Below, in pieces: positions 40 to 61,425 of a DNA stretch of 64,000 nt (position 1 is its first letter; every line of letters begins with the position of its first letter). This DNA comes from Mycobacteriales bacterium (GTDB taxonomy: Bacteria > Actinomycetota > Actinomycetes > Mycobacteriales > CADCTP01): NCBI GenBank assembly GCA_039648995.1, contig JBBWZH010000059.1, positions 801-64,800 of the forward strand, given 5' to 3'. The translations under genes were made by a program, and so were the position numbers. The notes below the pieces were generated by a model. That model saw only the letters and a list, made by a program, of their open reading frames with translations. It did not search any database and was not told the origin of the DNA.

Positions 40-3000
40 GTGTACTTCTTTCTTAGCTACGCGCGCAGCGGCGACGACCTGCTGGTCAAGCAATTCTTTC
101 AGGGCCTCAGTGCCGAACTCCGCCGGCGTACGGGTGTGGCGGCAGACGAGGCGGTGGGTTTTCTCGACACGGGAATCGGTATCGGCATCCGTTGGTCGAG
201 CGCGCTGCAGCAGGCCCTGTCATCCTGTCAGGTGTTCTTGCCACTCTACTCGGCGCGCTATTTCAAGCGGGTCTACTGCCGGCGGGAGTGGGCATTCTTC
301 GCCGAGCGGTTGCGGCTGGAGGCGGAGCGCACAGGTGTGCAGCCGGGGTCGATTATTCCGGTCACCTGGGTGCCGATGTCGGACAGACCGCCGGACGCGG
401 CCGCGGCGATCAACCACCACGACGAGACGTTCGGCACCGAGTACGCCAATCGCGGGCTGTACAGCATGCTCCGGGTCCAGCGGCTCCAGGACGACTATCA
501 CGAGTTCCTCGTGGCGCTGGCAACGAAGATTATCAACGTGGCGCGACTGCACCCGCTGCCCGCCCTCGACCCGGCGACCGCCCGCGCCGTCGAGGCGTTC
601 TCGGAGCACGCCGAGCCCTGGCCGCTGCCGGCCGACGCGCCGGACCCGGCGGCCGATGTGGCAGGCGTGGAACCGACCGGGCGGCCGCCGGCCGTCAACG
701 CGGACGGCAGCCCACGGGCGGTCCCGGCCGCGCCGTCGGTGTGGCGGGTGCCGACCAGGACAGCCGCGTTCACCGGGCGGGATGGAACCCTCGAACGGCT
801 GCACGCGGGCCTCGCCGCCGGCACGACGGTCGTGCTGCAGCGGGCCTTGTTCGGCCTCGGCGGGGTGGGCAAGACCCAGCTCGCGATCGAGTACGCCCAC
901 CGATACGCCGCTGACTACGACCTGGTGTGGTGGGTGCCGGCGGAGCAGCCGGCGTTGATCCGGTCCACGCTGGCCGAACTCGCGCCGCAGTTGGCGGTCG
1001 CATCCGGCGCGACGGTGGCCGGGACAGCGGAGGCGGTGCTCGACGTGCTGCGCCGTGGCCGGCCGTTCGGCCGCTGGCTGCTGATCTTCGACAACGCGGA
1101 TGAGCCGCGCGACCTCGCCCCCTACCTCCCGCACGGCGCCGGCCACGTGCTGGTGACCTCGCGCAACCAGCAGTGGGCGGCGCAGTTCGAGCATATCGAG
1201 GTCGACGTGTTCAGTCGCGCGGAGAGCGTCGCGCTGCTGACCCGGCAGTGCCGCGGCCTCGACCCGGCCGACGCGGACCGGATCGCCGCCGCGCTGGGCG
1301 ACCTGCCGCTCGCGGTCAGCCAGGCCGGCGCCTGGCTGGACGCCTCCGGGATGTCGGTGGAGGTCTACCTCAAGCTGTTGCGGACAGAGGTCACACAGCT
1401 GCTGAACGAGGGCAGCCCGCCGGACTATCCGATGTCGGCCGCGGCGACGTGGCTGCTGTCGGTCGGGCGACTGCGGCAGCAGGCCGCCTCGGCCGTGCGG
1501 TTGCTGGAGCTGTGCGCGTTCTTCGCGCCGGAGCCGATCACGTTGTCGTTGCTGTACAGCGACGAGGTCGCGCGCCGGCTCGACCCGGCGGCCGCGCCGG
1601 CGCAGAGCTCGCTGCTGATCGGCCGGCTGGTCCGCGACATCGGCCGGTACGCGCTCGCCCGGGTCGACTACCGGCAGGCCACGTTCCAGGTGCACCGGCT
1701 GGTCCAAGCGGTGCTGCGGGACCAGCTGACCCCGCAACAGCAGGCTGATCGGCGGCACGACGTGCACGAGGTGTTGGCCCGGGCGAATCCCGGCAATCCG
1801 GACGCACCGCAGAACTGGGACCGGTACGCCGAACTCTTCGCGCACATCGCCGCCTCCGGGGCCGTCGACTGCGGCGCCGAGGAGGTGCGCGGGTTGATCG
1901 TGGACGAGGTGCGGTATCTGCGGCGGCGCGGGGATTTCCGCAGCAGCCAGCAGATGGCCGAGCAGGCGCTGCCGCGCTGGCGCGAGCGGTTCGGCGAGGA
2001 CGACTCGTGGACGCTTCGACTCGGCTTCGACCTGGCCAACTCGATGCGCGCGCTGGGCTCCTACCAGGCCGCCCGGACGCTGGATGCCGAGATCCTGGCA
2101 CGGATGCGGCGCACGCTCGGCGACAGCCACATCTACACGCTGATGACGTCCAGCAGCCTGGCCGCCGATCTGCGGTCGCTCGGCTACTACAGGCAGGCGC
2201 AGGAGATGGACGAGGACACGCTGGCCCGGCTCCGCACGGAACTCGGCCCCGACCACACGCGGACGCTGATGGTCGCCAACAACGTCGCCGAGTCGTTGCT
2301 GCTTGCCGGCCAGCCGAGCGCGGCCCGCGCGTTGCACCGGGAGACGCTGACGCGGAGCCAGCGGGTCCGCGGCGCCGACCACCCGTCCACTCTGTTCGTG
2401 GCCAACAACCTGGCCCGCGACCTCCGCGGGGAGGGCCGCGTGCCGGAGTCGGTCGCCGTCCAGCGGGACACCCTCGCCAGGTACCAGCGGGTGCTCGGGG
2501 AGGGGCACGCGTCGACGCTGTTGGCCGCCACGAACCTGGCTGTCTCGCTGCGGCGGCTGGGCGAGCTCGCCGAGGCCCGCGAGCTGAACGAGGAGGCGGC
2601 CCGCCGCTACCGGACGCTGCTCGGCGAGGACCACCCAGACGTGCTGAGCTGCCGGATCAACCTCGCCTGCGATCTGTTCGCGGGTGGTGACCTGGAGGCC
2701 GCGCTGGGCCTCGTTGAGGAACTGTTCGGCCGGTACCGGCGGGTGCTCGGCGAGGGGCATCCGTCCAGCCTCGCCTGCGCCAACAACCTGGCCGTACTGC
2801 TGCGGGCGAACGGTGACCGGGACGCCCGGAGGGTCGCGGAGCGGGCGCTGGCCGGCCTGGCGCAGGCGCTCGGCGAGGAGCACCCGTACACGCTCGGTTG
2901 CGCGCTGAACCTGGCGAACACCTTGTCCGACGACGGGCAGCACCCGCTCGCCCGGGAGATCGACGAGCAGACCTACCGGCGCTACCTGCGTACGCTCGGC

Positions 3001-3201
3001 CCGGCCCACCCGGAGACGCTCGTCGGCGGCAGCAACCTGTCGAGGGACCTTCGGGCGACCGGCGACACCGACGGCGCAGGCGTGCTGCGCGAAGAGATCC
3101 TCCGCCGCTGCCGGGAATCGCTCGGCCCGGGCAATCCGATCACGCTGCGCGTTATCGGCGGGCAGCGGCTCGACTGGGATATCGAGGTTCCGCCGGTCTG
3201 A
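40..3201 (+). CDS. TIR-like / NB-ARC / TPR STAND NTPase (FxsC-like architecture)
   Basis: GTG start 9 nt after GGAGGG. The N-terminus YFFLSYAR...FLPLYSARYFKRVYCRREWAFF resembles TIR-like modules. P-loop GLGGVGKTQLA and Walker B LLIFDNAD are present. The C-terminal half has about ten tandem 42-aa TPR units (GxDHPxTLxxxxNLAxxL). Confidence 0.85.
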   Translation: MYFFLSYARSGDDLLVKQFFQGLSAELRRRTGVAADEAVGFLDTGIGIGIRWSSALQQALSSCQVFLPLYSARYFKRVYCRREWAFFAERLRLEAERTGVQPGSIIPVTWVPMSDRPPDAAAAINHHDETFGTEYANRGLYSMLRVQRLQDDYHEFLVALATKIINVARLHPLPALDPATARAVEAFSEHAEPWPLPADAPDPAADVAGVEPTGRPPAVNADGSPRAVPAAPSVWRVPTRTAAFTGRDGTLERLHAGLAAGTTVVLQRALFGLGGVGKTQLAIEYAHRYAADYDLVWWVPAEQPALIRSTLAELAPQLAVASGATVAGTAEAVLDVLRRGRPFGRWLLIFDNADEPRDLAPYLPHGAGHVLVTSRNQQWAAQFEHIEVDVFSRAESVALLTRQCRGLDPADADRIAAALGDLPLAVSQAGAWLDASGMSVEVYLKLLRTEVTQLLNEGSPPDYPMSAAATWLLSVGRLRQQAASAVRLLELCAFFAPEPITLSLLYSDEVARRLDPAAAPAQSSLLIGRLVRDIGRYALARVDYRQATFQVHRLVQAVLRDQLTPQQQADRRHDVHEVLARANPGNPDAPQNWDRYAELFAHIAASGAVDCGAEEVRGLIVDEVRYLRRRGDFRSSQQMAEQALPRWRERFGEDDSWTLRLGFDLANSMRALGSYQAARTLDAEILARMRRTLGDSHIYTLMTSSSLAADLRSLGYYRQAQEMDEDTLARLRTELGPDHTRTLMVANNVAESLLLAGQPSAARALHRETLTRSQRVRGADHPSTLFVANNLARDLRGEGRVPESVAVQRDTLARYQRVLGEGHASTLLAATNLAVSLRRLGELAEARELNEEAARRYRTLLGEDHPDVLSCRINLACDLFAGGDLEAALGLVEELFGRYRRVLGEGHPSSLACANNLAVLLRANGDRDARRVAERALAGLAQALGEEHPYTLGCALNLANTLSDDGQHPLAREIDEQTYRRYLRTLGPAHPETLVGGSNLSRDLRATGDTDGAGVLREEILRRCRESLGPGNPITLRVIGGQRLDWDIEVPPV

Positions 3202-20403: not shown

Positions 20404-23087
20404 CCGGTGGTAGAGCCGGCCGGTGCCGGGCCGGTGGGGGGCGGCGACTCTGGCGGGTCGCCGCCCCCGGCATCCCGGTCGGCGTTCCAGCGGCCGTCGG
20501 CAGCGCCACGGCGGGCGGCGGCACCACGGCGGGGAGCCGGAGCCGGCATGGCGGCCGGCTCCACACCGATCTCGGCCATCCGGGCGGTGTAGCCGCAGTG
20601 CGCGCGGCGGGCGTCGCCATACCGGCCGGCCGCGGCCAGCACCGACACCATGGCCAGGTGCGCCGGCTCGTCGTACGGGTCGTGGTCGAGCAGCCGGATC
20701 AGCACGAGCACGGCCTGGTCGGTGTCACCGGCCGCGCCGGCGTCCTCGGCCTGCGCGCGCAGCACGGCCAGGTGCGCGGCGCGGGCCTCCTCGCGCAGCG
20801 CGTGCGCCCAGTCCGCGTACACGTCTTCCTCCAGCACGTCGCCGCGGTAGGTCGCGGCGGCCCGACGCAGCAGCGCGCCGGCCACTGAGGTGCCGGCCGA
20901 CCGGGCCCGCAGTCCATTGATCGCATCACGCAGAAAGGTCTCAACATCAACGTCAAGCCGATTCAGGGCGAGCGTCACGCTGCCGTCCTCGGTGACGACG
21001 TAGTGGCCGGCCGGGTGGGTGCGGTCCGGGTCGAGCACCCGCCGGACCGTCGCCAGCGCCACCGAGAGCCGGTTGGCCAGCACGTCCGGCTCGTGCTCGT
21101 CCGGCCAGAGCAGCTCGACCAGCCGGCCGCGCGGGATGGCCCGCCCGCGCCGGGCCAGCAGGATCTTCAGCAGCTCCCGGGCCTTGCGCGACTGCCACTC
21201 GGTGTCGGCCACCGGCTCCCCGCCGCGGTTGATCTCGAACCGGCCGAGCACCCGGACGGCCACCCGCGGCGGCGCGCACCGGTACACGGCGGCGAGCAAC
21301 CCGGCGCCATGCGGCCCGGGCACCCGGACGCCGAGCCCGGCCAGCTCGGCCGCCGCCGCATCGGCCTCGCCGGCTGCCTCCCCGGACGAGTCGGCGGGGG
21401 CGGCCGAGCCGAACAGCCGGCCCAGCGCGTACCGGACCCGGAACGCGCCGACCGGATGGCCGATCTCCCGCCAGACCGAGCGCGCCTCCGTCAGCAGCCA
21501 GCGGGCCCGGTCGTCGGGCTGCCCCGGCTCGGGCCGGGCCGACCACTGGCAGAGCGCCTCCAGCTCCAGCGCCTCAGCCAGCGTCGCCCGGTCCCGGCGC
21601 GGGCCCGCGGCCGCGGCGACCCGGCGGGCCAGCGCCTGCGCCTCGGTCGCGGACCCGTCCTGCAGGTGCAGCCAGCCCACGGTCAGCTCGACGGCCGGCT
21701 GCCGGTCGCCGGCGTCGCGGAGCGCCTGCCGGGCCAGCGTCCAGGCGGCCGGCAGGTCGTGCGCGGCCAGCACCCGGGCCAGGCCGGTGACCGCGGGCAC
21801 CCAGGCCTGCGAGTCGGTCGCCTCGCCGGTGGCGATCGCCTCCTCATAGGCCGCCCGGGCCAGCGCCAGGTCACCCCGTTCCCGGTACGCGTCGCCCAGC
21901 CCGACCAGCGCGTACGCGATCATGCGGCTGCCGATCGACTGGAACGCCGCCTTGCTCCGCTCGAACGCGGCCACCGCGTCGCCGAACTGCCCGAGCTGCA
22001 GCAGGCACAGGCCGAGGTTGCTGCAGCACAGGCCGACCGCGACGACGAACCCGATCCGCTCGGCCAGCCGGGCGGCGTGGTCCAGCTCGATCACGGCCTC
22101 GGCCGGACAGCCCTCCTCCAGGAAATGCGAGCCGCGGTTGGCCCTGATCCGGACCACCTGCAGCAGGTCGCCGGCCCGCTCGGCGGCGTCGAGGGCGAGC
22201 GCCCAGTGCCGGCCGTTGCCGCTGCGGTCGCCGGCCAGCTTCGCGGCCATCGCGAGCGCGGAGTGCGCGGCGGCGAGCGCGGCGCCGTCACCGCAGCGGG
22301 CCGCGGCCGCCCGGGCCCGGCCGGCGAACCGGTCGCAGCCGGCCCGGTCGCCGAGCATCCAGCAGGCGGTGGCCGACCACGCCAGCAGCAGCGCCTCGTC
22401 CAGCGTGTCCTCCCGGTCCAGCCGGCCCCGGGCGTACGCGGCCAGCGCAGCGCCGGGTTCGCCGGCCTGGTAGCTGACCAGCCCCATCCGCCAGGCGACC
22501 GCCGCCGGCATCGGCCGCCCACCGTCCACCGGCGCCACCGGCCCCCGCCCGGGCCCGCTGCCCACCGGCGCCGCCGGCGCTGCCGGCTCCTGGCTGGGCC
22601 CGCTGCCCACCGGGGCCACTGGGCCCCGACCGGGCCCACCGTCCACCGGCGCCTCCGGCCCCCGACCGGGCCCGCCGTCCGCCGGGCGCTGGTCAGGCAC
22701 GGCGTCGGTGGACGGGGTGGGCCCGGCGGCACCGCGGGGCGTCGCGGTGCCGCCGGACGTCTCGGCGGCCTGCCGGCAGATCGCCAGCGCACCCTCAGCG
22801 TCGCCGCGGACCTGGCGGGCGTTGGCGAGCAGGGTCAGCCGGGCCGGGGTGAGGGCGGCCGGCGGTAGCGCGCCCACCGCCTCCTCGACCGCGAGCAGGT
22901 GGCCGGCGGCGAGGATGCGGCTGCCGGAGCCGTCCAGGATGCGCCCGACCTCGGCCGGGTCACCGCCGGCGACGGCCGACCGCAGCGCGGCCGCGAGGTC
23001 TTCGTACGGCAGGTCGGGGTAGTGCGCGGCGGGCAGCGCAGTGGGGTCGGGGCCGAGGGTTGCCCACTCGGCGAGCGGCGTCACCAT
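20382..23087 (-). CDS. TPR-containing regulator with C-terminal SARP module (wHTH + BTAD)
   Basis: ATG at 23087. The N-terminal region is followed by a Pro/Gly repeat linker, TPR-like repeats, then VRVLGRFEINRGGEPV...WQSRKARELLKILL (wHTH) and a BTAD-like end (RLLDHDPYDEPAHLAMVSVLAAAGRYGDARR). Confidence 0.75.
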   Translation of the reverse strand: MVTPLAEWATLGPDPTALPAAHYPDLPYEDLAAALRSAVAGGDPAEVGRILDGSGSRILAAGHLLAVEEAVGALPPAALTPARLTLLANARQVRGDAEGALAICRQAAETSGGTATPRGAAGPTPSTDAVPDQRPADGGPGRGPEAPVDGGPGRGPVAPVGSGPSQEPAAPAAPVGSGPGRGPVAPVDGGRPMPAAVAWRMGLVSYQAGEPGAALAAYARGRLDREDTLDEALLLAWSATACWMLGDRAGCDRFAGRARAAAARCGDGAALAAAHSALAMAAKLAGDRSGNGRHWALALDAAERAGDLLQVVRIRANRGSHFLEEGCPAEAVIELDHAARLAERIGFVVAVGLCCSNLGLCLLQLGQFGDAVAAFERSKAAFQSIGSRMIAYALVGLGDAYRERGDLALARAAYEEAIATGEATDSQAWVPAVTGLARVLAAHDLPAAWTLARQALRDAGDRQPAVELTVGWLHLQDGSATEAQALARRVAAAAGPRRDRATLAEALELEALCQWSARPEPGQPDDRARWLLTEARSVWREIGHPVGAFRVRYALGRLFGSAAPADSSGEAAGEADAAAAELAGLGVRVPGPHGAGLLAAVYRCAPPRVAVRVLGRFEINRGGEPVADTEWQSRKARELLKILLARRGRAIPRGRLVELLWPDEHEPDVLANRLSVALATVRRVLDPDRTHPAGHYVVTEDGSVTLALNRLDVDVETFLRDAINGLRARSAGTSVAGALLRRAAATYRGDVLEEDVYADWAHALREEARAAHLAVLRAQAEDAGAAGDTDQAVLVLIRLLDHDPYDEPAHLAMVSVLAAAGRYGDARRAHCGYTARMAEIGVEPAAMPAPAPRRGAAARRGAADGRWNADRDAGGGDPPESPPPTGPAPAGSTTGQPVQPW
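22518..22680 (-). repeat. nested in-frame direct repeats (Pro/Gly linker)
   Basis: The roughly 42-nt block CCCACCGTCCACCGGCGCC(A/T)CCGGCCCCCG(C/A)CCGGGCCCGC occurs at 22518 and 22635 (period 117 nt). It encodes PVDGGPGRGP(V/E)AP-type units. Confidence 0.75.
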
Positions 23088-28924: not shown

Positions 28925-31696
28925 GTGATCGCAGGCACAAGCGGGGAACCCGCCGGGCTGACCCGGGAGCGGCTGGCCACGGTGGCCGGCGTCACGGAGC
29001 TGGCCGAGGTGCTGCGCGTGCTGCGGCGGCGGGAAGCGCGCCGCCGCGCGGGCTCCGAGCTGACCTACCGCGAGCTCGCCGGCAGCACCGGCTGGTCGCA
29101 TGCGATCGTCGGGCAGTACCTCACCGGCAAGGTGCTGCCGCCGACCGACCGGTTCGACGTGCTGGTGCGGCTGCTCGGCGCCAGCCCGGTCGAGCAGGGC
29201 GCTCTGGCCACCGCTCGGGACCGGGTCGCGGAGGGGCGCCGTGCCCAGCCCACCGGGCACCAACCCGGCACCCGACCCGTCGGCCGGGCCGGCGGCGGGC
29301 GGCCGGTGCCGGCGCAGCTGCCGGCCGACCCGCCCGGCTTCACCGGCCGGGCCGCCGAACTGTCCGAACTGGACGGTCTGCTGGCGGCCGCGGACAGCCC
29401 GTCCGCACTGGTGATCTCGGCGGTGTCCGGCATGGCCGGGGTGGGCAAGACGGCGCTCGCCGTGCGCTGGGCGCACCGGGTCACGGGGCAGTTCCCGGAC
29501 GGCCAGCTGTACGTGAACCTGCGCGGCTACGACCCGGAACAGCCGGTGCCGCCGGGCGACGCGCTGGCCGGTTTCCTGCGCGCGCTCGGCGTGCCGTGCG
29601 CGGAGATCCCGGCCGAGCTGGCCGAGCGCGGGGCCCGGTTCCGCACCGAGCTCAGCGGCCGGCGGGTGCTGGTCGTGCTGGACAACGCGGCCGGGGTCGA
29701 GCAGGTGCGGCCGCTGCTGCCGGGCAGCCCGTCCTGCGCCGTGCTGGTCACCAGCCGCGACTCCCTGGCCGGCCTGGTCGCCGCGCACGGCGCGCACCGC
29801 CTCCGGCTGGACCGGCTGCCCGAACCGGACGCGATCGCCCTGCTGCGTCGGCTGATCGGTGCCCCGGTCGGCGCGCAGCCGGCCGCCGCCGCCCGGCTCG
29901 CCGCCCAGTGCGAGCGGCTGCCGCTGGCGCTGAGGGTGGCCGCCGAGCTGGCCGCCGCCCGCGCGCCGACGCCGCTGGCCGAGCTCGTGTCCGAACTGGA
30001 CGATCTGCGCCGGCGGCTGGACCTGCTCGACGCCGGAGGTGACCCGCGGGCGGCCGTCCGGGCGGTGCTCTCCTGGTCGTACCGGCACCTGCCGGCCGAC
30101 ACCGCGCGGACGTTCCGGCTGCTCGGCCTGCACCCCGGCGCCGACTGGGACCCGGCCGCGGTGGCCGCGCTCACCGGCCACGAGCCCTGGCACAGCCGGG
30201 CTCTGCTCGACGCGCTGGCCAGGGCGCACCTGATCGAGCCGGCCGCGCCCGGCCGGCACGGCATGCACGACCTGCTGCGCGGGTACGCCGCGGAGCTCGC
30301 CGCCGGCACCGACCCGCCAGCCAGCCGGCAGGCGGCGCTCACCGGCCTGCTCGACCACTACCTGGCCGGTGCCGCCGCCGCGATGGATACCCGCTACCCC
30401 GCCGAGGCGCACCGCCGCCCCCGCCCCACACCGTCCACTCCGGACGGCACACCGTCCACTGCGTACGGCGGACTGTCCACTCCGGACGCGGCACAGGAGT
30501 GGCTGGACGCGGAGCGGGCGAACCTGATCGCGGTGGCCGCGCACGCCGCCGAGCACGGCTGGCCGGCCCACGCGATCGGCCTGGCCGGCACGCTGTTCCG
30601 CTACCTGGATGCCGGTGGACGCACCAGCGACGCGCTGGCCCTGCACACGCACGCGCTGTTCGCGGCCGAGCTGACCGGCGACGCGGCAGCGCAGGCGAAC
30701 GCGCTGACCAGCCTCGGCGGCGTCCACTGGCGGCAGGGCCGGTACGGGCCGGCGGCCGCGCACGTCGAGCGGGCGCTGGCCCTGCACCGGCGGCTGGGTG
30801 ACCGGGCCGGCGAGGCGCGGGCGCTGGCCAACCTCGGCCGCGTCCTGCAGCGGCGGGGCGAGCTGGAACCCGCGGCCGCCCGGCTGCGGCAGGCGCTGGC
30901 GCTGTTCACCGCGCTCGGCGACCGGCTGGGTGAGGCACGCACGCTCGACCACCTCGGGTTCGTCGCGGCCCGGCAGGGCCTGCTGCGGCAGGCGGAAGCC
31001 CAGTTGCGGCAGGCGCTGGCGCTGTTCGGCGCGCTCGGCGACCGGCTGGGTGAGGCCGAGTCGCTCGGCCACCTCGGCGCGGTACGGGCCAGGCAGGGCC
31101 GGTACCCGGCCGCGGCCGAGGATCTGCGGCAGGCGCTGACCCGCTACCGCGACTGCGGGCACCCCGACGGCGAGGCGTACGCGCTGGCCAACCTCGGCGC
31201 GGTCACCGGCCGGCTGGGCGACCCGGACGCGGCCCACCAGTTGGACCAGGCCCGCTGCCTCTACCAGCGCGCCGGTGACCGGCTCGGCGAGGCGCAGGTG
31301 CTGGTCCACCTGAGCGAGCTGGCCGCCGGGTCGGGCGACTGCGGGCCGGCCCGGGGCCAGGCGGTCCGGGCGCTGGAGCTGTTCCGGGCGGCCGGCGACC
31401 GGGCCGGCGAGGCCGAGGCACTGACCGCGCTCGGCGAGGCGCTGCACGAGTCCGGCGACCATGCGGCGGCGGCCGATCGGCATGCCGAGGCCGCCGAGCT
31501 GGCCGGGCGGACCGGCGACCGGTACCAGCGGTCCCGCGCGCTGGACGGGCTGGCGCGGGCCGGGCACGCCACCGCCGGCCGGTCCGGCGGGCATCCACCG
31601 GCCGGTTACCGGGAGTCGACCGGCCCGCCGGACGCGCCGGACACCTTCGCGTTGCTCGGCGCGCCCGGCGCCGGCGGCCCGTCCACCGCTGTCTGA
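28925..31696 (+). CDS. HTH (XRE-like) + NB-ARC + TPR STAND regulator
   Basis: GTG start after GGGGGAG. HTH LTYRELAGSTGWSHAIVGQYLTGK, P-loop GMAGVGKTALA, VLVVLDNA, LPLALRVAA, and C-terminal TPR units (GDRxGEAxxLxxLG repeated). The NB-ARC is clearly paralogous to 23789..26905. Confidence 0.88.
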   Translation: MIAGTSGEPAGLTRERLATVAGVTELAEVLRVLRRREARRRAGSELTYRELAGSTGWSHAIVGQYLTGKVLPPTDRFDVLVRLLGASPVEQGALATARDRVAEGRRAQPTGHQPGTRPVGRAGGGRPVPAQLPADPPGFTGRAAELSELDGLLAAADSPSALVISAVSGMAGVGKTALAVRWAHRVTGQFPDGQLYVNLRGYDPEQPVPPGDALAGFLRALGVPCAEIPAELAERGARFRTELSGRRVLVVLDNAAGVEQVRPLLPGSPSCAVLVTSRDSLAGLVAAHGAHRLRLDRLPEPDAIALLRRLIGAPVGAQPAAAARLAAQCERLPLALRVAAELAAARAPTPLAELVSELDDLRRRLDLLDAGGDPRAAVRAVLSWSYRHLPADTARTFRLLGLHPGADWDPAAVAALTGHEPWHSRALLDALARAHLIEPAAPGRHGMHDLLRGYAAELAAGTDPPASRQAALTGLLDHYLAGAAAAMDTRYPAEAHRRPRPTPSTPDGTPSTAYGGLSTPDAAQEWLDAERANLIAVAAHAAEHGWPAHAIGLAGTLFRYLDAGGRTSDALALHTHALFAAELTGDAAAQANALTSLGGVHWRQGRYGPAAAHVERALALHRRLGDRAGEARALANLGRVLQRRGELEPAAARLRQALALFTALGDRLGEARTLDHLGFVAARQGLLRQAEAQLRQALALFGALGDRLGEAESLGHLGAVRARQGRYPAAAEDLRQALTRYRDCGHPDGEAYALANLGAVTGRLGDPDAAHQLDQARCLYQRAGDRLGEAQVLVHLSELAAGSGDCGPARGQAVRALELFRAAGDRAGEAEALTALGEALHESGDHAAAADRHAEAAELAGRTGDRYQRSRALDGLARAGHATAGRSGGHPPAGYRESTGPPDAPDTFALLGAPGAGGPSTAV

Positions 31697-51950: not shown

Positions 51951-52319
51951 ATGCTGGATGAGGCTGAGGTATTCGGCAGCTTCGCGGTGACGGACATCCG
52001 CCGGGCCAAGGAGTTCTACGGCGGGACGCTCGGGCTGCGGGTGTCGGACGCCCGGCTGGGCCAGTTACGGCTGCATGTCGGCACCGGTCGCGGCTACCTG
52101 CTCTACCCGAAGCCCGACCACACCCCGGCCACGTTCACCGTGCTCAACTTCATCGTGGACGACATCGACGAGGCGGTCGGCCGGCTGGTCGAGCGCGGCG
52201 TCCGGTTCGAGCACTACGACCACCCGAAGACCGACGCCGACGGCATCGACCGGGCCGAGCTGGTCGCCTGGTTCACCGACCCGGACGGCAACATCCTCTC
52301 GGTCGTCCAGGAGCGTTGA
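51951..52319 (+). CDS. VOC/glyoxalase-family protein
   Basis: ATG at 51951 after GGAAAGGAG. FYGGTLGLRV ... WFTDPDGNILSV. Confidence 0.8.
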   Translation: MLDEAEVFGSFAVTDIRRAKEFYGGTLGLRVSDARLGQLRLHVGTGRGYLLYPKPDHTPATFTVLNFIVDDIDEAVGRLVERGVRFEHYDHPKTDADGIDRAELVAWFTDPDGNILSVVQER

Positions 52320-52519
52320 GCCCGCCGTACCTAACCTGGCGGCGTGGCGTGGCTGCCGCGGTACCGCACAGAACCGCGAGGTTGGACGGCGTAGACAGCG
52401 CGTCCGTCCACAGCCAGGGGTGTTGCCGGTGTCGGGCCGTTGGACGGCGTTGGTCTGTCCACTGTGGATGGTCGAATTGGCGTGGTGCGGCGAGCGACAG
52501 GCTTGGTGTGATCGAACGT

Positions 52520-54046
52520 ATGTTCGATCCGGCGGGGGTGTCTGACGCTGCACTGGTCGACGCCATCGCGGCGTGGGACCGGGTGGTGTCGTGGGCGCAG
52601 GCCGCGCAGTTGGCCGCGATCGCGGAACTGGCGCGGCGGCGGCCGGCCCAGCCGGGGCAGCCCAGTGACGGGACCGGGGTGAGTGAGTTCGCCGTCGACG
52701 AGGTGGCCGCGGCGCTGCGGCTGTCGCGCCCGGCCGCCGGTGCCCGGCTCCAGGTCGCGGTCGAGGTGGCCACGCGGCTGCCGGCGACCGGTGCGGCGCT
52801 ACGCCGCGGGGAGATCGACTTCGCCAGGGCCCGAGCCGTGGTCGAGGCGGTGACGCCGCTGGCCGACCCGGCGGCGGCGGCCGTGGAGGCGCGGGTGCTA
52901 CCCCGCGCGGGCAGCCAGACGGTCGGCCAGCTCCGGGCCAGCCTCGCCCGCGCGGTACCAGCCGCCGACCCGGCCGCCGCCGAGGTCCGGCACGCCCGCG
53001 CGGTCGCCGACCGTCGGGTCGCGCTGACCCCGCTCGCCGACGGCGTGGCCGAACTCTGGGCACTGCTGCCCGCCGACGCCGCCACCGCCGTCTACACCGC
53101 AATCGACACCCACGCCCGCAGCGGTCCCGCCGACCACCGCACCATGGACGCCCGCCGCGCCGACGCCCTCACCCACCTCATCACCGCCGCCCACACCGAC
53201 ACGACGACCGCCGCCCACACCACGACCGTGGCCGGCGCGGCGACCCCGAGCCGCACCCGCACCCGCACCGCCACCGGCGGTGTGGCCAGCGCCGGGACCG
53301 TGGCCGGCGCCGGGACCGTGGCCCACAGCACGACCGTGGCCCACACCACGACCGTGGCCGGCGCCGGGACCGTGGCCGGCGCCGTAGCCAGCAGCGGCGC
53401 CCTGGCCGGCGCCGCGACCACCGGCACCGGGAAGCTGACCGGCGCCCGCACGACGACCGACACCGCGGCCAGCACCGCCGCCCCGACCGGCGCGGCGACC
53501 AGCACCCACACCGCGACCGCGACCGCACCGGGCACCGTCACTCGCGGCCGTCGGCCCGGTAGCGGTCCGCTCGTGCATGTCACCGTCGCGGCGTCGACAC
53601 TGCTCGGCCTCGACGACGAACCCGCCGACCTGACCGGCTACGGGCCCATCCCCGCCTCCATGGCACGCCGCATCGCCGCCGACCCCACCGGCACCTGGCG
53701 ACGCATCCTCACCGACCCGGCCTCAGGCACCGTCCTGGACGTCGGACGCACCACCTACCGCCCACCACCAGCCATCGCCAGACACGTCACCACCCGCGAC
53801 CAAACCTGCCGGTTTCCCACCTGCCGACAACCCGCCCACCGCTGCGACCTCGACCACATCCGCCCCTACCCCACCGGGCCTACCGCCGTGAACAACTTGA
53901 CCACGCTCTGCCGTCATCATCACCGGCTCAAACACCACGGCACCTGGAAAGTGACCCCCATCGGTAACGGCAACCTCACCTGGACCGCCCCGACCGGACA
54001 CAGGTACACCACCCAGCCGGCGGGTGGTTCGGGTCGAAGTAGCTAG
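52520..54046 (+). CDS. DUF222 + HNH endonuclease domain protein (13E12-repeat-like family)
   Basis: ATG at 52520. The N-terminal DUF222-like region has AQLAAIAELARRR...RGEIDFARARAV. A Thr/Ala/Gly repeat insert follows. The HNH block is CRFPTCRQPAHRCDLDHIRPY...NLTTLCRHHHRLKH. Confidence 0.85.
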   Translation: MFDPAGVSDAALVDAIAAWDRVVSWAQAAQLAAIAELARRRPAQPGQPSDGTGVSEFAVDEVAAALRLSRPAAGARLQVAVEVATRLPATGAALRRGEIDFARARAVVEAVTPLADPAAAAVEARVLPRAGSQTVGQLRASLARAVPAADPAAAEVRHARAVADRRVALTPLADGVAELWALLPADAATAVYTAIDTHARSGPADHRTMDARRADALTHLITAAHTDTTTAAHTTTVAGAATPSRTRTRTATGGVASAGTVAGAGTVAHSTTVAHTTTVAGAGTVAGAVASSGALAGAATTGTGKLTGARTTTDTAASTAAPTGAATSTHTATATAPGTVTRGRRPGSGPLVHVTVAASTLLGLDDEPADLTGYGPIPASMARRIAADPTGTWRRILTDPASGTVLDVGRTTYRPPPAIARHVTTRDQTCRFPTCRQPAHRCDLDHIRPYPTGPTAVNNLTTLCRHHHRLKHHGTWKVTPIGNGNLTWTAPTGHRYTTQPAGGSGRSS

Positions 54047-57137: not shown

Positions 57138-57173
57138 TTGACAATCCTAAAGCATGTTCTTATGGTCATACCA
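57138..57173 (+). promoter_or_regulatory. sigma70-like promoter with overlapping operator copy 2
   Basis: TTGACA (57138-57143), 17 nt spacer, TATGGT (57161-57166). The operator TGGTCATACCA (57163-57173) overlaps the -10. The region is divergent between the GntR and dioxygenase genes. Confidence 0.6.
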
Positions 57174-57217
57174 ATAGCCCAATAGGCCTGCGTTCAGTGA
57201 CAAAGGAGCCGCTTGGG

Positions 57218-58489
57218 ATGGTGGCGATTGAGGACTTCTCCCGCACCGCGCTGATCCTCGACCGGCCTGACACGTTCGAAGTACACACCGACGTGTACAC
57301 CGACCCCGACGTCTTCCGCGCGGAGATGAAGAACATCTTCGAGCGCACCTGGGTCTACGTCGGCCACGAGTCGCAGCTGCCCGAGATCGGCGACTACAAG
57401 ACCTCCGCGGTCGGCACCCAGCCGGTGATCGTCAGCCGGCACGAGGATGGGCAGGTGTACGTGCTGCTCAACCGGTGCCGGCACCGCGCCTCGGTGGTCT
57501 GCCGGGACGACGTCGGCCACTCCAACTACTTCCGCTGCCCGTACCACAACTGGAGCTACGCCAACGACGGCGCGCTGGTCGGGATGGCGCAGTCGTCCGG
57601 CTACCCGGCCGACTTCGACAAGAGCAGGTGGGGCCTGCACCGGGCGCCGCGGGTGGGCAGCTACCGCGGGTTGATCTTCGCGAGCCTGGCCGCCGACGGG
57701 CCGTCGCTGGATGAGCACCTGGCGCCGATCCGCAAGTACATCGACTGGTGGTTCGACCGCTCGCCCACCGGCACGATCAGCGTGCTGCCCAAGCCGCACA
57801 AGTACCCGTACCCCGGCAACTGGAAGTGGCAGGCCGAGAACGGGCACGACGGCTACCACGGCAACTACGTGCATGAGTCCTGGCAGCGGCTGCTGGAGCG
57901 GGCGGGCGAGGCGCCGGTGCGGGAGGTGCGCAAGTTCCGCGCCGCCGGCTGCACCCGCGGCTTCGCCTACGGGCACGGGCTGCTGGAGCGGCCCGGCGGC
58001 CTGTCCCCGGCGTCCAGCTGGACCGGCCGGATGATGCAGCGCTTCCCCGACTACGCGACCGCGCTGCGCGGGCGGTTCACCGACGACGTGATCGACGAGA
58101 TCTCCGCCCGCCGCAACATCTTCGTCTTCCCGAACCTCTACCTGTTCGACACACAGCTGCGGGTGATCAACCCGATCGTGGTCGACCGGACCGAGGTGCA
58201 CCTCTACGTCTACGCGCTGGACGGGGCGCCGACCGAGCTGAACGAGGGCCGGTACCGGGCGCACGAGCGGTTCTACGGCCCGTCCGGGTTCGGCTCGCCG
58301 GACGACGTGGAGATCTTCGTCTGCAACCAGACCGGGGTGCAGGCCGGCGGCGTCGACTACCTGCGGCTGGCCCGCGGGCTGCACCGGGAGAAGCGGGTGG
58401 ACGGCGAGTGGGTCGGGCACAGCACCGACGAGGTACCGGTCCGCGCGCTGTACCGGGAGTGGAAGAGGTTGATGGGGGTCGCCTCGTGA
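57218..58489 (+). CDS. Rieske-type aromatic ring-hydroxylating oxygenase, alpha subunit
   Basis: ATG at 57218, 9 nt after AAGGAG. Rieske motif CRHR...CPYHNW and mononuclear iron block NGHDGYHGNYVHES. Confidence 0.9.
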   Translation: MVAIEDFSRTALILDRPDTFEVHTDVYTDPDVFRAEMKNIFERTWVYVGHESQLPEIGDYKTSAVGTQPVIVSRHEDGQVYVLLNRCRHRASVVCRDDVGHSNYFRCPYHNWSYANDGALVGMAQSSGYPADFDKSRWGLHRAPRVGSYRGLIFASLAADGPSLDEHLAPIRKYIDWWFDRSPTGTISVLPKPHKYPYPGNWKWQAENGHDGYHGNYVHESWQRLLERAGEAPVREVRKFRAAGCTRGFAYGHGLLERPGGLSPASSWTGRMMQRFPDYATALRGRFTDDVIDEISARRNIFVFPNLYLFDTQLRVINPIVVDRTEVHLYVYALDGAPTELNEGRYRAHERFYGPSGFGSPDDVEIFVCNQTGVQAGGVDYLRLARGLHREKRVDGEWVGHSTDEVPVRALYREWKRLMGVAS

Positions 58490-58572
58490 CCATGCCGCCC
58501 GGCGGACTCCGCCGCTCCGCTCCTCGCGCGCTGGCGCCCGCTGCGATGCTCACGACGGAGGCCGCCTCGTGA
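58486..58572 (+). repeat. MIRU-like intercistronic repeat, copy A, with bridging mini-ORF
   Basis: It shares CGCTCCGCTCC, CTGCGATGCTCAC and GCCTCGTGAC with copy B. The open frame VTMPPGGLRRSAPRALAPAAMLTTEAAS starts in a GTGA overlap with the alpha-subunit stop and ends in a GTGA overlap with the beta-subunit start. Confidence 0.65.
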
Positions 58573-59132
58573 CCACGACCCAACCGGCGCCCGCCGCGAC
58601 CCCCGGGCCGGCACAGCCGGCGGCGGCGCGGCTGAGCCGGGCCGAGGCGGAGGAACTGCTGTACCGCGAGGCGCGGCTGCTGGACACGGTCGCGCTGGAG
58701 GAGTGGCTGGAGCTGTTCACCGAGGACGGCCTGTACTGGCTGCCGATCGAGGACGCCGACGACCCGGCCGACGCGGCCGGCGTGGTCTCGATCGTGTACG
58801 ACGACCGGGCCCGGCGGGAGGAGCGCGTCTACCGCACGCTGCACACGCCCGTGCTGGACCAGAACCCGCGCTCGCGCACCATGCACATGGTCGGCAATGT
58901 CGAGGTGCTCGGCCCCGACGACCGTGGTGACGTGCGGGTACTGTGCAACCAGGTGATCGGCGAGATCCGCTCGGGCGGGCACCGTCAGGTCGGGCTCAAC
59001 GTGACCCGGTGGTTCGGGGCACGCTGCGAGTTCCGGTTGCGGCCCGGCCGGGACGGCTGGCGGATCAGCCTGAAGAAGACCGTGCTGATCGACTCCGACC
59101 AGCCGCTCTACAACCTGACGTTCCTGATCTAG
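58569..59132 (+). CDS. ring-hydroxylating oxygenase beta subunit (SnoaL-like fold)
   Basis: GTG start. EELLYREARLLDTVALEEWLELFTEDGLYWLP ... ISLKKTVLIDSD is typical of the small subunit. Confidence 0.88.
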   Translation: MTTTQPAPAATPGPAQPAAARLSRAEAEELLYREARLLDTVALEEWLELFTEDGLYWLPIEDADDPADAAGVVSIVYDDRARREERVYRTLHTPVLDQNPRSRTMHMVGNVEVLGPDDRGDVRVLCNQVIGEIRSGGHRQVGLNVTRWFGARCEFRLRPGRDGWRISLKKTVLIDSDQPLYNLTFLI

Positions 59133-59145
59133 GGGTGCGGCGGAC

Positions 59146-59370
59146 GTGGCTGAGATCTACCAGAACGAGTTCGCGATGGTGGAGGTCTCCCGGTACGAGA
59201 CCGGGAGCGGTGCCCGGCTGCACATCCGCGACCTGGGCAGCGGCGCCGAGGTGTTCCTCGACCCGCTGGAGCTCGAGTCGCTCTGCCGCTGGAAGCACCG
59301 CGACTTCGGCCCGCTGGTCGACCCGAGCGGGGCGGTCAGCCAGCCGGAGCCGGACCCGGACCAGGTGTGA
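59146..59370 (+). CDS. small hypothetical protein (74 aa) within the oxygenase operon
   Basis: GTG start 10 nt after AGGGG. G/C-rich third positions and acidic composition, with no motif recognised. Confidence 0.5.
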   Translation: MAEIYQNEFAMVEVSRYETGSGARLHIRDLGSGAEVFLDPLELESLCRWKHRDFGPLVDPSGAVSQPEPDPDQV

Positions 59371-59456
59371 CGGCGCCGGCCCGGCGCCCCCCTTCGCTCC
59401 GCTCCGCGGCGCCCCAGCCGGCACCTGCGATGCTCACTCCGGGGGGCGCCTCGTGA
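59367..59456 (+). repeat. MIRU-like intercistronic repeat, copy B, with bridging mini-ORF
   Basis: The open frame VTAPARRPPSLRSAAPQPAPAMLTPGGAS starts in a GTGA overlap with the 59146..59370 stop and ends in a GTGA overlap with the dehydrogenase start. It also contains the hairpin GGCGCCCC...GGGGCGCC. Confidence 0.65.
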
Positions 59457-60592
59457 CTGCGCTGCCGGCGGCGGTGCCGCGGGTGGCGCGGGTGGCGGTG
59501 GCGACCGGGGCGTACACGACCGAGCTGCGCGAGTTGCCGGTGCCGGCGGTCGGCCCCGACGACGGGCTGCTGCGGGTGGAGGCGGCCGCGGTCTGCGGCA
59601 CCGACTGGGAGATCTACGGCCGGCGCAGCCGCGGCGCGGGGCTCGGGCCGCTGGTGCTCGGGCACGAGAACGTCGGCCGGATCGTCGCGCTGGGGGAGCG
59701 GGCCGCCGCGCGCTGGGGCGTCGCGGTCGGTGACCGGGTCGCGGTCGAGGAGTTCCTGCCGTGCGGCGCCTGCCCGATGTGTCGGCGCGGGCTCTACCGG
59801 CTCTGCCCGGCCACCGACTCCCGCGGCGGCGGGCCGTTCCTGCGCTACGGCAGCACCCCGATCACCGTCGAACCCGGCCTGTACGGCGGCTTCGCCGAGC
59901 TGATGTACCTGCACCCGCGGGCGATCGTCTACCCGGTCGGCGACGCGGTCGCGCCCGAGATCGCCGCCCTCTACGTGCCGATCGCGAACGGCGTCAACTG
60001 GGTGACGCAGGAGGGCGGCCTGCGCCTCGGCGGCACGCTCGCGGTGATCGGCCCGGGGCAGCACGGGCTCGGCTGCGTGGTGGCCGCACGGGAGGCCGGC
60101 GCCGCCGCGATCGCCGTGATCGGCACCGCCGCGGACCGGCACCGCCTGGACGTGGCCACGGCGCTCGGCGCGGACGCGACGTTCGTCGCCGGCGACGACG
60201 CCGCGGCGGACGACGTGGTCGCCGGCGTGCGGGAGCTGACCGGCGGCGGCGCGGACCTGGTGATCGACCTGGCCCCGGGCGCGGTCGGCACCGTCGCCGA
60301 CGCGGTCGCGATGGCCGGCGTGCGCGGCGCGGTCGGGCTCGCCTCGTCCAAGCACGGGCAGCCCGTACCGGTCCCGCACGACCTGGTGGTACGCCGCGAG
60401 CTGCGGATACTCGGGCTGCGCGGGCACGACGTCCGGTCGGTCGGGCCGGCGCTGGAGCTGATCAGGTCCGGCCGGCACCGGCTCGACCTGCTCGCCACCC
60501 ACCGCTTCCCGCTCGCCGCCACGGCCGACGCGCTCACCCTGGCCGGCGAACGCGCCGACCCCGCCGCGATCCACGTGAGCGTGCTGCCGTGA
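59453..60592 (+). CDS. zinc-binding medium-chain alcohol dehydrogenase family protein
   Basis: CGTDWE and GHENVGRIV catalytic-zinc blocks, CGACPMCRRGLYRLC structural-zinc block, and GPGQHGLG Rossmann motif. Confidence 0.88.
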   Translation: MTALPAAVPRVARVAVATGAYTTELRELPVPAVGPDDGLLRVEAAAVCGTDWEIYGRRSRGAGLGPLVLGHENVGRIVALGERAAARWGVAVGDRVAVEEFLPCGACPMCRRGLYRLCPATDSRGGGPFLRYGSTPITVEPGLYGGFAELMYLHPRAIVYPVGDAVAPEIAALYVPIANGVNWVTQEGGLRLGGTLAVIGPGQHGLGCVVAAREAGAAAIAVIGTAADRHRLDVATALGADATFVAGDDAAADDVVAGVRELTGGGADLVIDLAPGAVGTVADAVAMAGVRGAVGLASSKHGQPVPVPHDLVVRRELRILGLRGHDVRSVGPALELIRSGRHRLDLLATHRFPLAATADALTLAGERADPAAIHVSVLP

Positions 60593-61347: not shown

Positions 61348-61372
61348 AATGGTCATACCTTTGGACCATAAT
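61344..61372 (+). promoter_or_regulatory. sigma70-like promoter with operator copy 3
   Basis: TTGAAA (61344-61349), 17 nt spacer, CATAAT (61367-61372). The spacer holds ATGGTCATACCT plus the dyad ATGGTC/GACCAT. Confidence 0.55.
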
Positions 61373-61425
61373 CTTGTTCACTCCACCGCCTGATCCCTCC
61401 CGACAACCCGCGAAGAGGAGTGGCT

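Follow-up and report, generated by a model that had tools for sequence, protein, structure and literature searches.

A MIRU-like family of small repeats on stop/start overlaps in operons of uncultured soil Actinomycetota

Two short segments between the genes of an oxygenase operon, here called copy A and copy B, belong to a repeat family that is dispersed in the genomes of uncultured soil actinobacteria. The family is real, new and MIRU-like. We consider it likely that the element is a small, non-coding, dispersed and tandemly amplifiable unit, about 87 nt long with variants of 48 to 123 nt, which in uncultured soil Actinomycetota of high GC sits on RTGA overlaps between co-transcribed genes and travels there as a passenger relaying translation. 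The source contig was sampled as a stretch of 64,000 nt (the window, which in what follows means this whole stretch; GC 74.9%), and other copies were studied in the 8-kb pieces surrounding them.

Copies A and B in the oxygenase operon

All features of the operon are on the + strand. Copy A (58486..58572) separates the gene for the alpha subunit of a Rieske-type ring-hydroxylating dioxygenase (57218..58489; Pfam Rieske and Ring_hydroxyl_A) from that for the beta subunit (58569..59132; Pfam Ring_hydroxyl_B and homologues). Copy B (59367..59456) separates a conserved 74-aa ORF (59146..59370) from the gene for a zinc-type alcohol dehydrogenase (59453..60592; Pfam ADH_N and ADH_zinc_N). The likely start of the alpha gene is the ATG at 57218, found after AAGGAG, the mechanical ORF beginning at a GTG at 57197. 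The 74-aa ORF belongs to no Pfam family and is kept at 74 aa in all orthologous operons. The stop codon of the dehydrogenase overlaps the GTG of the next gene at 60589, forming a plain GTGA junction without an element.

Copy A is an element and mini-ORF of 87 nt (28 codons plus stop) and copy B one of 90 nt (29 codons plus stop), each with a GTGA overlap at either end. The GTG of copy A at 58486 overlaps the TGA of the alpha gene (58487-58489) and its TGA (58570-58572) overlaps the GTG of the beta gene (58569); likewise, the GTG of copy B at 59367 overlaps the TGA of the 74-aa ORF (59368-59370) and its TGA (59454-59456) the GTG of the dehydrogenase (59453). The mini-ORF peptides are VTMPPGGLRRSAPRALAPAAMLTTEAAS for copy A and VTAPARRPPSLRSAAPQPAPAMLTPGGAS for copy B. 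The first-pass annotation had described these open frames, overlaps and peptides, as well as sequence blocks shared by both copies, and all of them were reproduced. The aligned copies show 80% column identity. Within the window, CGCTCCGCTCC and CTGCGATGCTCAC match exactly at copies A and B alone, and CGCCTCGTGAC occurs a third time at 58480, at the end of the alpha gene. The first block was also said to be read in different frames in the two copies, which holds when the identical 11-mers are aligned: the 5' part of copy B is shifted by +1, and the shift is made good farther downstream within the copy.

The third occurrence is part of a 13-nt direct repeat, CGCCTCGTGACCA (58480..58492), which equals the 3' end of copy A (58563-58575). 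Orthologues of the alpha subunit stop 2 residues past EWKRLM/EWKRLI and the window protein stops 4 past, its C-terminal codons GVAS* lying two codons beyond the orthologue ends. We read this 13-nt repeat as what is probably left of the end of a previous element, joined in frame to the alpha gene. In-frame fusion is occasional, being seen in three copies besides this tail.

Because of the 75% GC content, an open frame is uninformative by itself. The likeness between A and B might reflect a local event only, i.e. duplication of a spacer or gene conversion in the operon, or simply chance. In keeping with this, the 64-kb window holds just two copies, open frames are common at this GC, and the copies do not fold more stably than shuffled sequence of the same GC (z-scores not significant). 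However, a profile built without the window copies, from 32 copies of other genomes, matched copy A with an E-value of 1.3e-16 and copy B with 2.4e-9 and detected no third site in the window, the next best having an E-value of 2. In a separate model search, copy A scored 87.7 bits and copy B 64.1 bits. Since this independent profile picks exactly A and B, chance resemblance is excluded. Dozens of copies are also present in unrelated operons of other genomes and of metagenomes, and in orthologous operons the genes meet at these junctions without a spacer. The many external loci and the profile refute a local event, to which we attach practically no credence.

The dispersed family and its filled and empty sites

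Species-representative genomes were scanned with the 3' module of the element as the pattern, which yielded 33 loci; no cultured Mycobacterium genome matched this pattern in the scan. As for the further copies that the first-pass annotation had proposed to look for, the complete 10.08-Mb chromosome of an uncultured actinobacterium (OY970235.1, labelled Actinomycetota) contains at least 17 loci by the strict 3' pattern alone, and the others are mainly in MAGs labelled Mycobacteriales, Streptosporangiales or Actinomycetota. These same three labels are those of the carriers of the type-1 element, all of which are uncultured MAGs. We collected 34 distinct full-length copies of 72-123 nt, plus deletion forms of 48 and 57 nt; near-identical copies are kept at many loci. 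Tandem arrays of two to three units were present at 6 of 27 loci, and such arrays could act as strain markers in soil metagenomes.

The expectation that copies would be intercistronic, co-oriented and frame-preserving was borne out. The element and the downstream ORF were co-oriented in all 27 loci or arrays, and in all 27 the 3' RTG opened a long ORF (at least 145 aa unless cut by the contig end; GC3 0.86-1.00). The 5' TGA closed a long, high-GC3 upstream ORF in at least 18 of about 23 loci, copies that do not overlap an upstream stop being found at L013 and L016. At L011, L022 and L031, the 3' module precedes a gene by itself. The functions of the carrier operons are unrelated to one another.

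It had also been considered that the spacers of orthologous operons might be merely divergent versions of those in the window. Empty junctions or a deletion form were observed instead. In four orthologous operons (L004, L159, L160 and L161), both sites are empty and the genes meet directly in an ATGA, GTGA or TGATG overlap. In two others (L001 and L030), the alpha/beta site holds a deletion form of 57 nt, where the window has the long form; some close orthologues have an unrelated spacer. Thus, related operons may have no unit, a short one or a long one at the same site. In 24 of 27 loci, the RTGA at the two ends began with the same letter, A or G, compared with 58% in cross-pairings (p = 5e-4), although RTGA on both ends could also stem from selection alone. 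Direct repeats longer than RTGA (7-13 nt) were found in some copies only.

Gene callers will misplace starts at such junctions or merge mini-ORFs into neighbouring genes. We noted that the beta subunit is called as 234 aa in L001, and that RegX3 entries have 245-347 aa, compared with a query of 227 aa.

Reading frame, stem and core

The length of the element is a multiple of three in 31 of the 34 distinct full-length copies; three copies are 1 mod 3 and none is 2 mod 3. The three exceptions are read in frame into the following start. When length classes rather than copies were counted, 13 of 15 were 0 mod 3 (binomial p = 3e-5, a value that overstates independence because the copies are related by descent). 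No internal stop was found among the 0-mod-3 copies checked, and in several copies, B among them, a +1 shift is compensated within the element.

The peptides of many copies are alike and their frame stays open, as would be expected if the mini-ORFs were functional micropeptides (consensus MTxYPGGLLRSAPRSLGLAAMLTPEAAS) and the DNA were conserved through selection on them. Against this, variable sites are distributed 9/12/12 over codon positions 1, 2 and 3, i.e. without an excess at the third position, and nonsynonymous codon differences (347) outnumber synonymous ones (125). Furthermore, part of the element is read in another frame in copy B and several others (ARRP instead of PGG), the length ranges from 48 to 123 nt, and the core of the element is read on the other strand in related families. 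We therefore find selection on the peptide very improbable. Because the substitutions show no third-position excess, it is the frame that is conserved and not the peptide, in agreement with the earlier view that conservation acts on the DNA or RNA with the open frame retained.

A conserved 10-bp stem, in which the element's own Shine-Dalgarno (SD) sequence pairs with an upstream arm, covaries among the copies. In copy A, its arms are GGCGGACTCC (58501..58510) and GGAGGCCGCC (58557..58566); the GGAGG in the latter is the SD, with a spacing of 7 nt to the GTG that starts the beta gene. In copy B, they are GGCGCCCCCC (59383..59392) and GGGGGGCGCC (59441..59450), the latter a purine-rich, SD-like run with a spacing of 6 nt to the dehydrogenase GTG. 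Two pair differences between the stems of A and B are compensatory. The inverted repeat is subterminal, with about 15 nt of the element before it and 6 nt after it. In an alignment that was fitted to the model, 83% of the cells were paired, compared with 39-64% with slid partners, both-sided changes were seen in 7 of the 10 stem pairs, and none of 500 shuffles was as good. Folding energies did not set the copies apart from shuffled sequence at this GC. The hairpin that the first-pass annotation had pointed out in copy B is real, but it is not peculiar to this copy: it has a counterpart in A and is found family-wide.

The element also contains a core of 40 nt, made of two boxes round a variable hairpin. 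In copy A (58513..58553), box 1 is CGCTCCGCTCCTCG and box 2 is CTGCGATGCTCAC, with a variable segment between them. The core of copy B (59395..59437) is identical over 43 nt to that of a metagenomic locus (L107) with different flanks, where it lies in the orientation opposite to its genes. Other metagenomic repeat families also contain the core, most of them the other way round, so that it occurs in both orientations relative to transcription, and at least 17 different perfect stems were found between its boxes. It is conceivable, though we hold it to be unlikely, that this core, with its freely varying but always paired stem, is the recognition module of a mobilisation system such as a single-strand DNA transposase that reads hairpins. 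Such a system would deliver it to operon stop/start overlaps or gene starts in either orientation, and families of flanking 'adaptors' would each have evolved chains of relay ORFs linked by RTGA. If so, MIRUs and the present elements would belong to a broader class of mobile DNA at operon junctions of Actinomycetota that has gone unrecognised.

The elements could alternatively be regulatory RNA structures selected by the host and kept for its benefit, either as SD-sequestering hairpins that set the ratios between operon genes, or as mRNA stabilisers or processing sites, as for REP sequences. The conservation of the stem, which includes the SD, with compensatory changes favours such a role, as do the lone 3' module before some genes and the persistence of near-identical copies at many loci. 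Yet close orthologous operons lack the element, or have its deletion form or a spacer that is not related to it, the operons that carry it differ in function, and the sharing of the core in both orientations argues against a common, sequence-specific RNA role. The stem is not an intrinsic terminator, because no U-tract follows it. Rfam 15 gave no match in the window at gathering thresholds, and with E-values up to 10 only two matches between 58400 and 59520, both outside A and B and far below gathering scores. On the whole, a regulatory role seems to us unlikely, though it deserves some weight.

Our preferred interpretation is that of a relay passenger, probably selfish or nearly neutral, with a peptide that would be without function. 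From the sequences we infer that a ribosome ending the upstream gene would restart at the overlapping RTG, cross the stop-free mini-ORF, thereby melting the 10-bp stem that otherwise pairs the element's SD, and terminate at the TGA that overlaps the downstream start codon, to which translation would be handed on. We propose that the element persists because this relay leaves operon expression largely intact. It may have spread through some mobilisation or duplication process that leaves RTGA, at times with more bases, as a direct repeat. Taken together, the many length variants that keep to multiples of three, the compensated frameshifts, the covarying SD-sequestering stem and the empty and filled sites offer comparative evidence of unusual clarity that selection in nature does act to maintain translational coupling across 4-nt overlaps.

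Comparison with known repeats

Small repeats of other bacteria include Correia/NEMIS in Neisseria, ERIC/IRU in enterobacteria and BOX/RUP in the pneumococcus (PMC3184786). Like these MITEs and other co-transcribed small repeats, the present elements are short, non-autonomous and dispersed, contain inverted repeats, are often co-transcribed and show presence/absence polymorphism. Those repeats, however, have true terminal inverted repeats, whereas the inverted repeat is subterminal here, and fixed target duplications (TA for Correia), and they are not bound to stop/start overlaps or to a reading frame. REP/BIME sequences, with their RAYT transposases, share with our elements a conserved box beside a hairpin, a stem that varies in sequence with its pairing kept, and a position between operon genes in either orientation; they differ in that REPs are about 35 nt long, follow stop codons, have no coupling ORFs and are known mainly from Proteobacteria. 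Rickettsia palindromic elements are selfish palindromic repeats that survive as their insertion keeps the frame open. They lie within protein-coding genes, whose products they lengthen by some residues, unlike the present elements, which are separate relay ORFs between genes.

The closest comparison is with MIRUs (Supply et al. 1997, as summarised in PMC3184786 and PMC12548453), which are intercistronic and co-oriented and carry a small ORF overlapping the flanking stop and start (PMC3184786, PMC12548453). The actual senX3-regX3 MIRU array of M. tuberculosis (L158) has the same layout as the elements of the window. Both are repeats of 40-100 nt between co-transcribed genes, oriented as these are, with a small ORF that starts on the upstream stop and ends on the downstream start. 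Both form tandem arrays, have size classes resulting from internal deletions, contain a GC-rich inverted repeat, and occupy sites that are filled in some relatives and empty in others, with a direct repeat of four nucleotides. The MIRU-type organisation claimed in the first-pass annotation was thus found in every feature, but without sequence similarity: no resemblance to the 77-bp senX3-regX3 MIRU was detectable, either by local alignment of A, B and the type-1 consensus on both strands, where scores were at shuffle level, or with the type-1 profile, which had no match in the array. For this reason, we call the element MIRU-like and not a MIRU.

The similar architecture and the Mycobacteriales label of some hosts could also suggest a true but diverged homologue of MIRUs, with a common ancestor and the same mobilisation machinery. 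In addition, one metagenomic family with a reversed core shares a weak local similarity with the MIRU (CGAGGAGCGGAGCG..GCGATGAG against CGACGATGCAGAGCGTAGCGATGAG), a score that 2% of shuffles reached, uncorrected for 14 tests. Besides the results of the alignments and the profile, the geometry of the junctions speaks against homology: both are 4-nt RTGA overlaps here, whereas the MIRU array opens with ATGA at its 5' end, its units being joined to each other and to the downstream gene by TGATG, with an overlap of 1 nt. Common descent appears improbable to us. The present elements differ further in their hosts, which are uncultured Actinomycetota of about 75% GC and not Mycobacterium, in holding a canonical SD within a covarying stem, and in a core common to other families that lie in the opposite orientation.

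The literature that we searched, with incomplete coverage, contained no report of MIRU-like elements outside mycobacteria, and in it MIRUs are the only described repeats that sit on stop/start overlaps and relay translation through a mini-ORF of their own. The occurrence of the same design in an unrelated family, in a different and uncultured lineage, shows that this design is not a mycobacterial curiosity.

Two related spacers in a dioxygenase operon

The window has a GC content of 74.9% and carries, at 57.2–61.3 kb, a plus-strand operon that encodes the alpha subunit of a Rieske dioxygenase (ending at 58489), the beta subunit (58569–59132), a conserved 74-aa ORF (59146–59370), a zinc alcohol dehydrogenase (59453–60592) and a class II aldolase, which starts with GTG at 60589, in direct overlap with the stop of the dehydrogenase gene. 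Two segments of this operon, copy A between the alpha and beta genes (58486–58572, 87 nt) and copy B between the 74-aa ORF and the dehydrogenase gene (59367–59456, 90 nt), had been described as related in the first-pass annotation, and they indeed aligned with 80% identity. As described there, in both copies a GTG overlaps the upstream TGA and a TGA overlaps the downstream GTG, forming a GTGA at each end; the frame between these overlaps (the mini-ORF) is stop-free and its translation gave the peptides that had been quoted. An open frame of 29 codons is expected by chance in about 2 of 3 cases at the GC content of the window, and is therefore no proof by itself. The sequence blocks said to be shared were confined to the two sites, except for CGCCTCGTGAC, which is also found at 58480, at the end of the alpha gene. 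This gene ends with GVAS*, 2 codons beyond all its orthologues, and its tail consists of 13 bases (CGCCTCGTGACCA) identical to the end of copy A; in our reading, the tail is what is left of a second unit that became joined in frame to the gene. Neither window-wide repeat finding nor a two-copy profile revealed a third copy within the 64 kb.

The window also contains other repeats. A DUF222-domain ORF (52316–54046) has 18-nt-periodic repeats (ACCGTGGCCGGCGCCGGG-like) inside it at 53171–53524; DUF222 is known from the mycobacterial REP13E12 family. Two sets of periodic direct repeats of 126 nt and 120 nt (2096–3041 and 30681–31464; 60–80% identity) resemble tandem protein repeats (TPR-like) in large regulatory genes, and a proline-rich 36/45-nt repeat is present at 22517–22695. 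The AT-rich motif ATGGTCATACC occurs at 57162–57172 and again at 61349–61359, in two low-GC gaps ahead of the alpha gene and of a cupin-like ORF at 61420. It resembles operators of the GntR family (TGGT..ACCA type), and a GntR regulator is encoded divergently at the orthologous loci; if the motif is such an operator, there would be two regulated promoters.

A dispersed family placed on stop/start overlaps

The decisive evidence for the two segments being more than a chance resemblance came from beyond the window. A pattern scan for the 3' module TGCTCACNNCGGNGGNCGCCNNRTGA, with one genome per species, yielded 33 loci, at least 17 of them in the complete 10.08-Mb chromosome OY970235.1 of an uncultured Actinomycetota bacterium and the remaining ones mostly in MAGs from soil that bear the labels Mycobacteriales, Streptosporangiales or Actinomycetota. 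For a few matches (Bradyrhizobium, Dehalococcoidia, Microthrix), no other part of the element was present, and these seem to be either fortuitous or limited to the 3' module. The consensus of this family, called type-1, was RTGACCgtgtaCCCCGGCGGCCTCCTCCGCTCCGCTCCTCGCTCGCTGGsGCTCGCTGCGATGCTCACTCCGGAGGCCGCCTCRTGA, where RTGA is the 4-nt stop/start overlap (ATGA or GTGA). An independent profile, built from 32 copies with the window copies left out, recovered copy A (E = 1.3e-16) and copy B (E = 2.4e-9) and had no other match in the 64 kb. The further copies for which the first-pass annotation had proposed to search related genomes therefore exist, and a purely local or chance origin of the window pair, to which the open frames would have been no obstacle, is effectively excluded. 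At three sites (loci L011, 5627–5652; L022, 4987–5012; L031, 3994–4019), the 3' module alone (TGCTCAC..CGGAGG.CGCC..ATGA, i.e. Shine-Dalgarno arm and start) precedes a gene, with neither the 5' arm nor box 1; such sites represent copies that have decayed or, alternatively, a ribosome-binding cassette that can be reused.

The copies lie between genes, exactly on the stop/start overlaps and in the orientation of the flanking genes, as anticipated from the window. The 3' RTG opened a long ORF in 27/27 loci or arrays, with a GC3 of 0.86–1.00 in exactly that frame, and the 5' TGA closed a long ORF with the same high-GC3 signature in at least 18 loci. Tandem arrays of 2 or 3 units, successive units being joined by RTGA, were present at 6 of the 27 loci. 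The A or G of RTGA was the same on both sides of the element in 24 of 27 loci, vs 58% on cross-pairing (p = 5e-4), and spread of the element may involve duplication of an RTGA target. Direct repeats of greater length occurred in some copies, namely L012 (10 nt), L007 (11 nt) and copy A (7 nt, or 13 nt if bases upstream are included). The signal past the RTGA was weak and copy-specific, and we make no claim that the target duplication has a fixed length.

Orthologous operons, reached via beta-subunit homologues, provided empty as well as filled sites. The alpha/beta junction was a plain ATGA or GTGA overlap in L004 (95% beta identity), L159, L160 and L161, while L001 and L030 (92% identity; the latter in OY970235.1) contained the element in a 57-nt form, which lacks 30 internal bases and has ATGA and GTGA at its ends, and the window the 87-nt form. 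Comparison of the orthologues, which had been suggested earlier, thus disclosed empty, short and long states rather than a merely divergent spacer. The 74-aa/dehydrogenase junction was ATGA in L160, TGATG in L161 and, judging from gene coordinates, a 4-nt overlap in a further contig; the window has the 90-nt copy B there. In L001 (10939–11015), it is occupied by an unrelated 76–81-nt spacer with two successive mini-ORFs of 14 and 11 codons (VSAVRSAGADREAP and VSAARREPGAG), which three GTGA overlaps join into a chain that leads to the dehydrogenase gene; both units begin with GTGAGCG. The idea that this spacer is an inverted copy of the element was dropped, since alignment scores were at chance level. 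The plain overlaps in orthologues indicate that direct overlap is the ancestral state, and the same junction would then have been taken independently by different relay spacers.

Two other peculiarities of these operons concern the beta subunit and its surroundings. L161 (3576–3675; also L162) has a 98-nt insertion at the beta/74-aa junction, which measures 11–13 nt in other orthologues; this insertion, which includes CTCGCTCCGCCCC, begins at a TGATG and stays in frame with the 74-aa gene that follows. It may represent a further junction element that has become an N-terminal extension by fusion. In L001 (10001–10705), the gene call gives the beta subunit 234 aa, not ~187 aa, with a low-complexity expansion in the N-terminus (repeated PASPD/PAPAS), and its N-terminal 30 residues are hypervariable between close relatives.

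A frame-keeping mini-ORF and a stem holding the Shine-Dalgarno sequence

Counted with the first RTGA and the last TGA included, 31 of the 34 distinct full-length copies were 72, 78, 81, 84, 87, 90, 96, 114, 117 or 123 nt long. The other three (76 or 79 nt) were all 1 mod 3, so that the mini-ORF continues in frame into the next start codon, and none of the 34 was 2 mod 3. When the 48-, 57- and 111-nt forms were added, 13 of 15 length classes were multiples of three (p = 3e-5). Several copies, including copy B, have a one-base insertion near the 5' arm, which puts ARRP in place of PGG and is compensated further downstream. Lengths and compensated shifts together indicate that indels have been filtered for keeping the relay frame.

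The product of this frame is not what is conserved. A codon-position test on ten 87-nt copies showed 9, 12 and 12 variable sites at codon positions 1, 2 and 3, and 347 nonsynonymous vs 125 synonymous codon differences, with no sign of selection at the amino-acid level. This agrees with the earlier proposal that conservation concerns the nucleic acid and the open, overlap-terminated frame. A functional peptide, with which the constraint on frame would be compatible, is extremely improbable and in effect excluded.

Both window copies can form a long-range stem, in which GGCGGACTCC pairs with GGAGGCCGCC (copy A) or GGCGCCCCCC with GGGGGGCGCC (copy B), with two compensatory pair differences between them. 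The hairpin previously noted in copy B is therefore there, and copy A folds likewise. When 38 copies were aligned to a covariance model, the 10-bp stem was paired in 83% of cells of this model-fitted alignment, vs 39–64% with partners slid by 1–3 columns. Changes on both sides were seen in 7/10 stem pairs, and 0/500 shuffles reached the observed values, again with the model-fitted alignment. At this GC content, folding energies of single sequences did not surpass those obtained with shuffles, so that the case for the stem rests on covariation. Rfam gave no family match at gathering thresholds, and nothing for the copies at E up to 10. GGAGG lies within the 3' arm, 7 nt ahead of the downstream start codon, and the element therefore supplies its own ribosome-binding site and start codon. 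This site would be hidden in a stem lying inside the mini-ORF. As there is no U-tract behind the stem, it is not an intrinsic terminator.

We propose that a ribosome finishing the upstream gene reinitiates on the overlapping RTG, translates through the element, thereby opening the stem, and hands over at the second RTGA; such a relay would be the reason why insertions are tolerated. A regulatory role of the stem that benefits the host, for which its covarying pairs and enclosed GGAGG might speak, would be compatible with the relay and seems to us unlikely. As a whole, the account of a dispersed, MIRU-like element that sits on stop/start overlaps and relays translation by a mini-ORF is in our view quite probable.

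A shared core, and comparison with MIRUs

A metagenome scan with an end-independent pattern (CGCTCCGC, a gap of 10–35 bases, GCGATGCTCAC) matched at least 120 stretches of DNA. About half of the listed matches were due to chance, inside genes; the others had a common core, made of box 1 (CGCTCCGCTCCTCG), a variable middle and box 2 (CTGCGATGCTCAC), with several sets of flanks. The middle was a perfect 5–7 bp hairpin in at least 17 sequence versions and elsewhere one of two non-hairpin fillers. In most other core families among the listed matches, the flanking genes were on the strand opposite to the core. RTGA-linked mini-ORF chains bridged both genes in 17/30 reverse-orientation cases tested automatically, many of the failures being short contigs, arrays or wrong frame calls. 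The 43-nt core of one locus (L107, 1377–1420) was identical to that of copy B (window 59395–59437), with different flanks and the opposite orientation to the genes, which suggests that the core is exchanged between families or mobile independently. That the core occurs in both orientations points to a DNA-level role, for instance in being recognised by a mobilising function or in inter-element recombination, and speaks against a function shared as RNA or as peptide. We regard this DNA-level role as a lead, not a result; if the shared core marks a mobilisation system aimed at operon junctions, the element would be of higher interest.

Mycobacterial interspersed repetitive units (MIRUs) are 40–100 bp repeats found in operons of mycobacteria; their ORFs overlap adjacent genes, they contain internal GC-rich inverted repeats, their filled sites show tetranucleotide direct repeats, and insertion apparently took place at start codons, leaving the MIRU ORF coupled at −4 nt (PMC3184786, PMC12548453). 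In the M. tuberculosis senX3-regX3 region, we found three 77-bp units, the first ATG lying over the senX3 stop (ATGA) and TGATG standing between units and before regX3. Protein entries 98–100% identical to a 227-aa RegX3 query were 245, 248, 256, 262, 277, 318, 344 and 347 aa long (P0121–P0130, P0167), and the called start of P0123 (256 aa) is inside the MIRU array. This suggests that gene callers extend starts into upstream MIRU ORFs, an annotation artefact to be expected from the new family as well.

The first-pass annotation had likened the window segments to MIRUs. The layout was borne out. The type-1 profile did not match the senX3-regX3 array, and copies A and B and the type-1 consensus aligned with the MIRU no better than with shuffled MIRUs, on either strand. 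One reverse-core metagenomic family had a weak similarity to the MIRU, as high in 2% of shuffles, uncorrected for 14 comparisons. The literature searched, with partial journal coverage, held no prior description of the element sequence or, as the annotation had supposed, of such elements outside mycobacteria. Thus, the element is organised and probably works like a MIRU, but differs in that it shows no sequence relatedness to MIRUs and its host is not Mycobacterium, and it therefore represents a separate, MIRU-like family. A family with this sequence appears to be new; its design is one already known from MIRUs.
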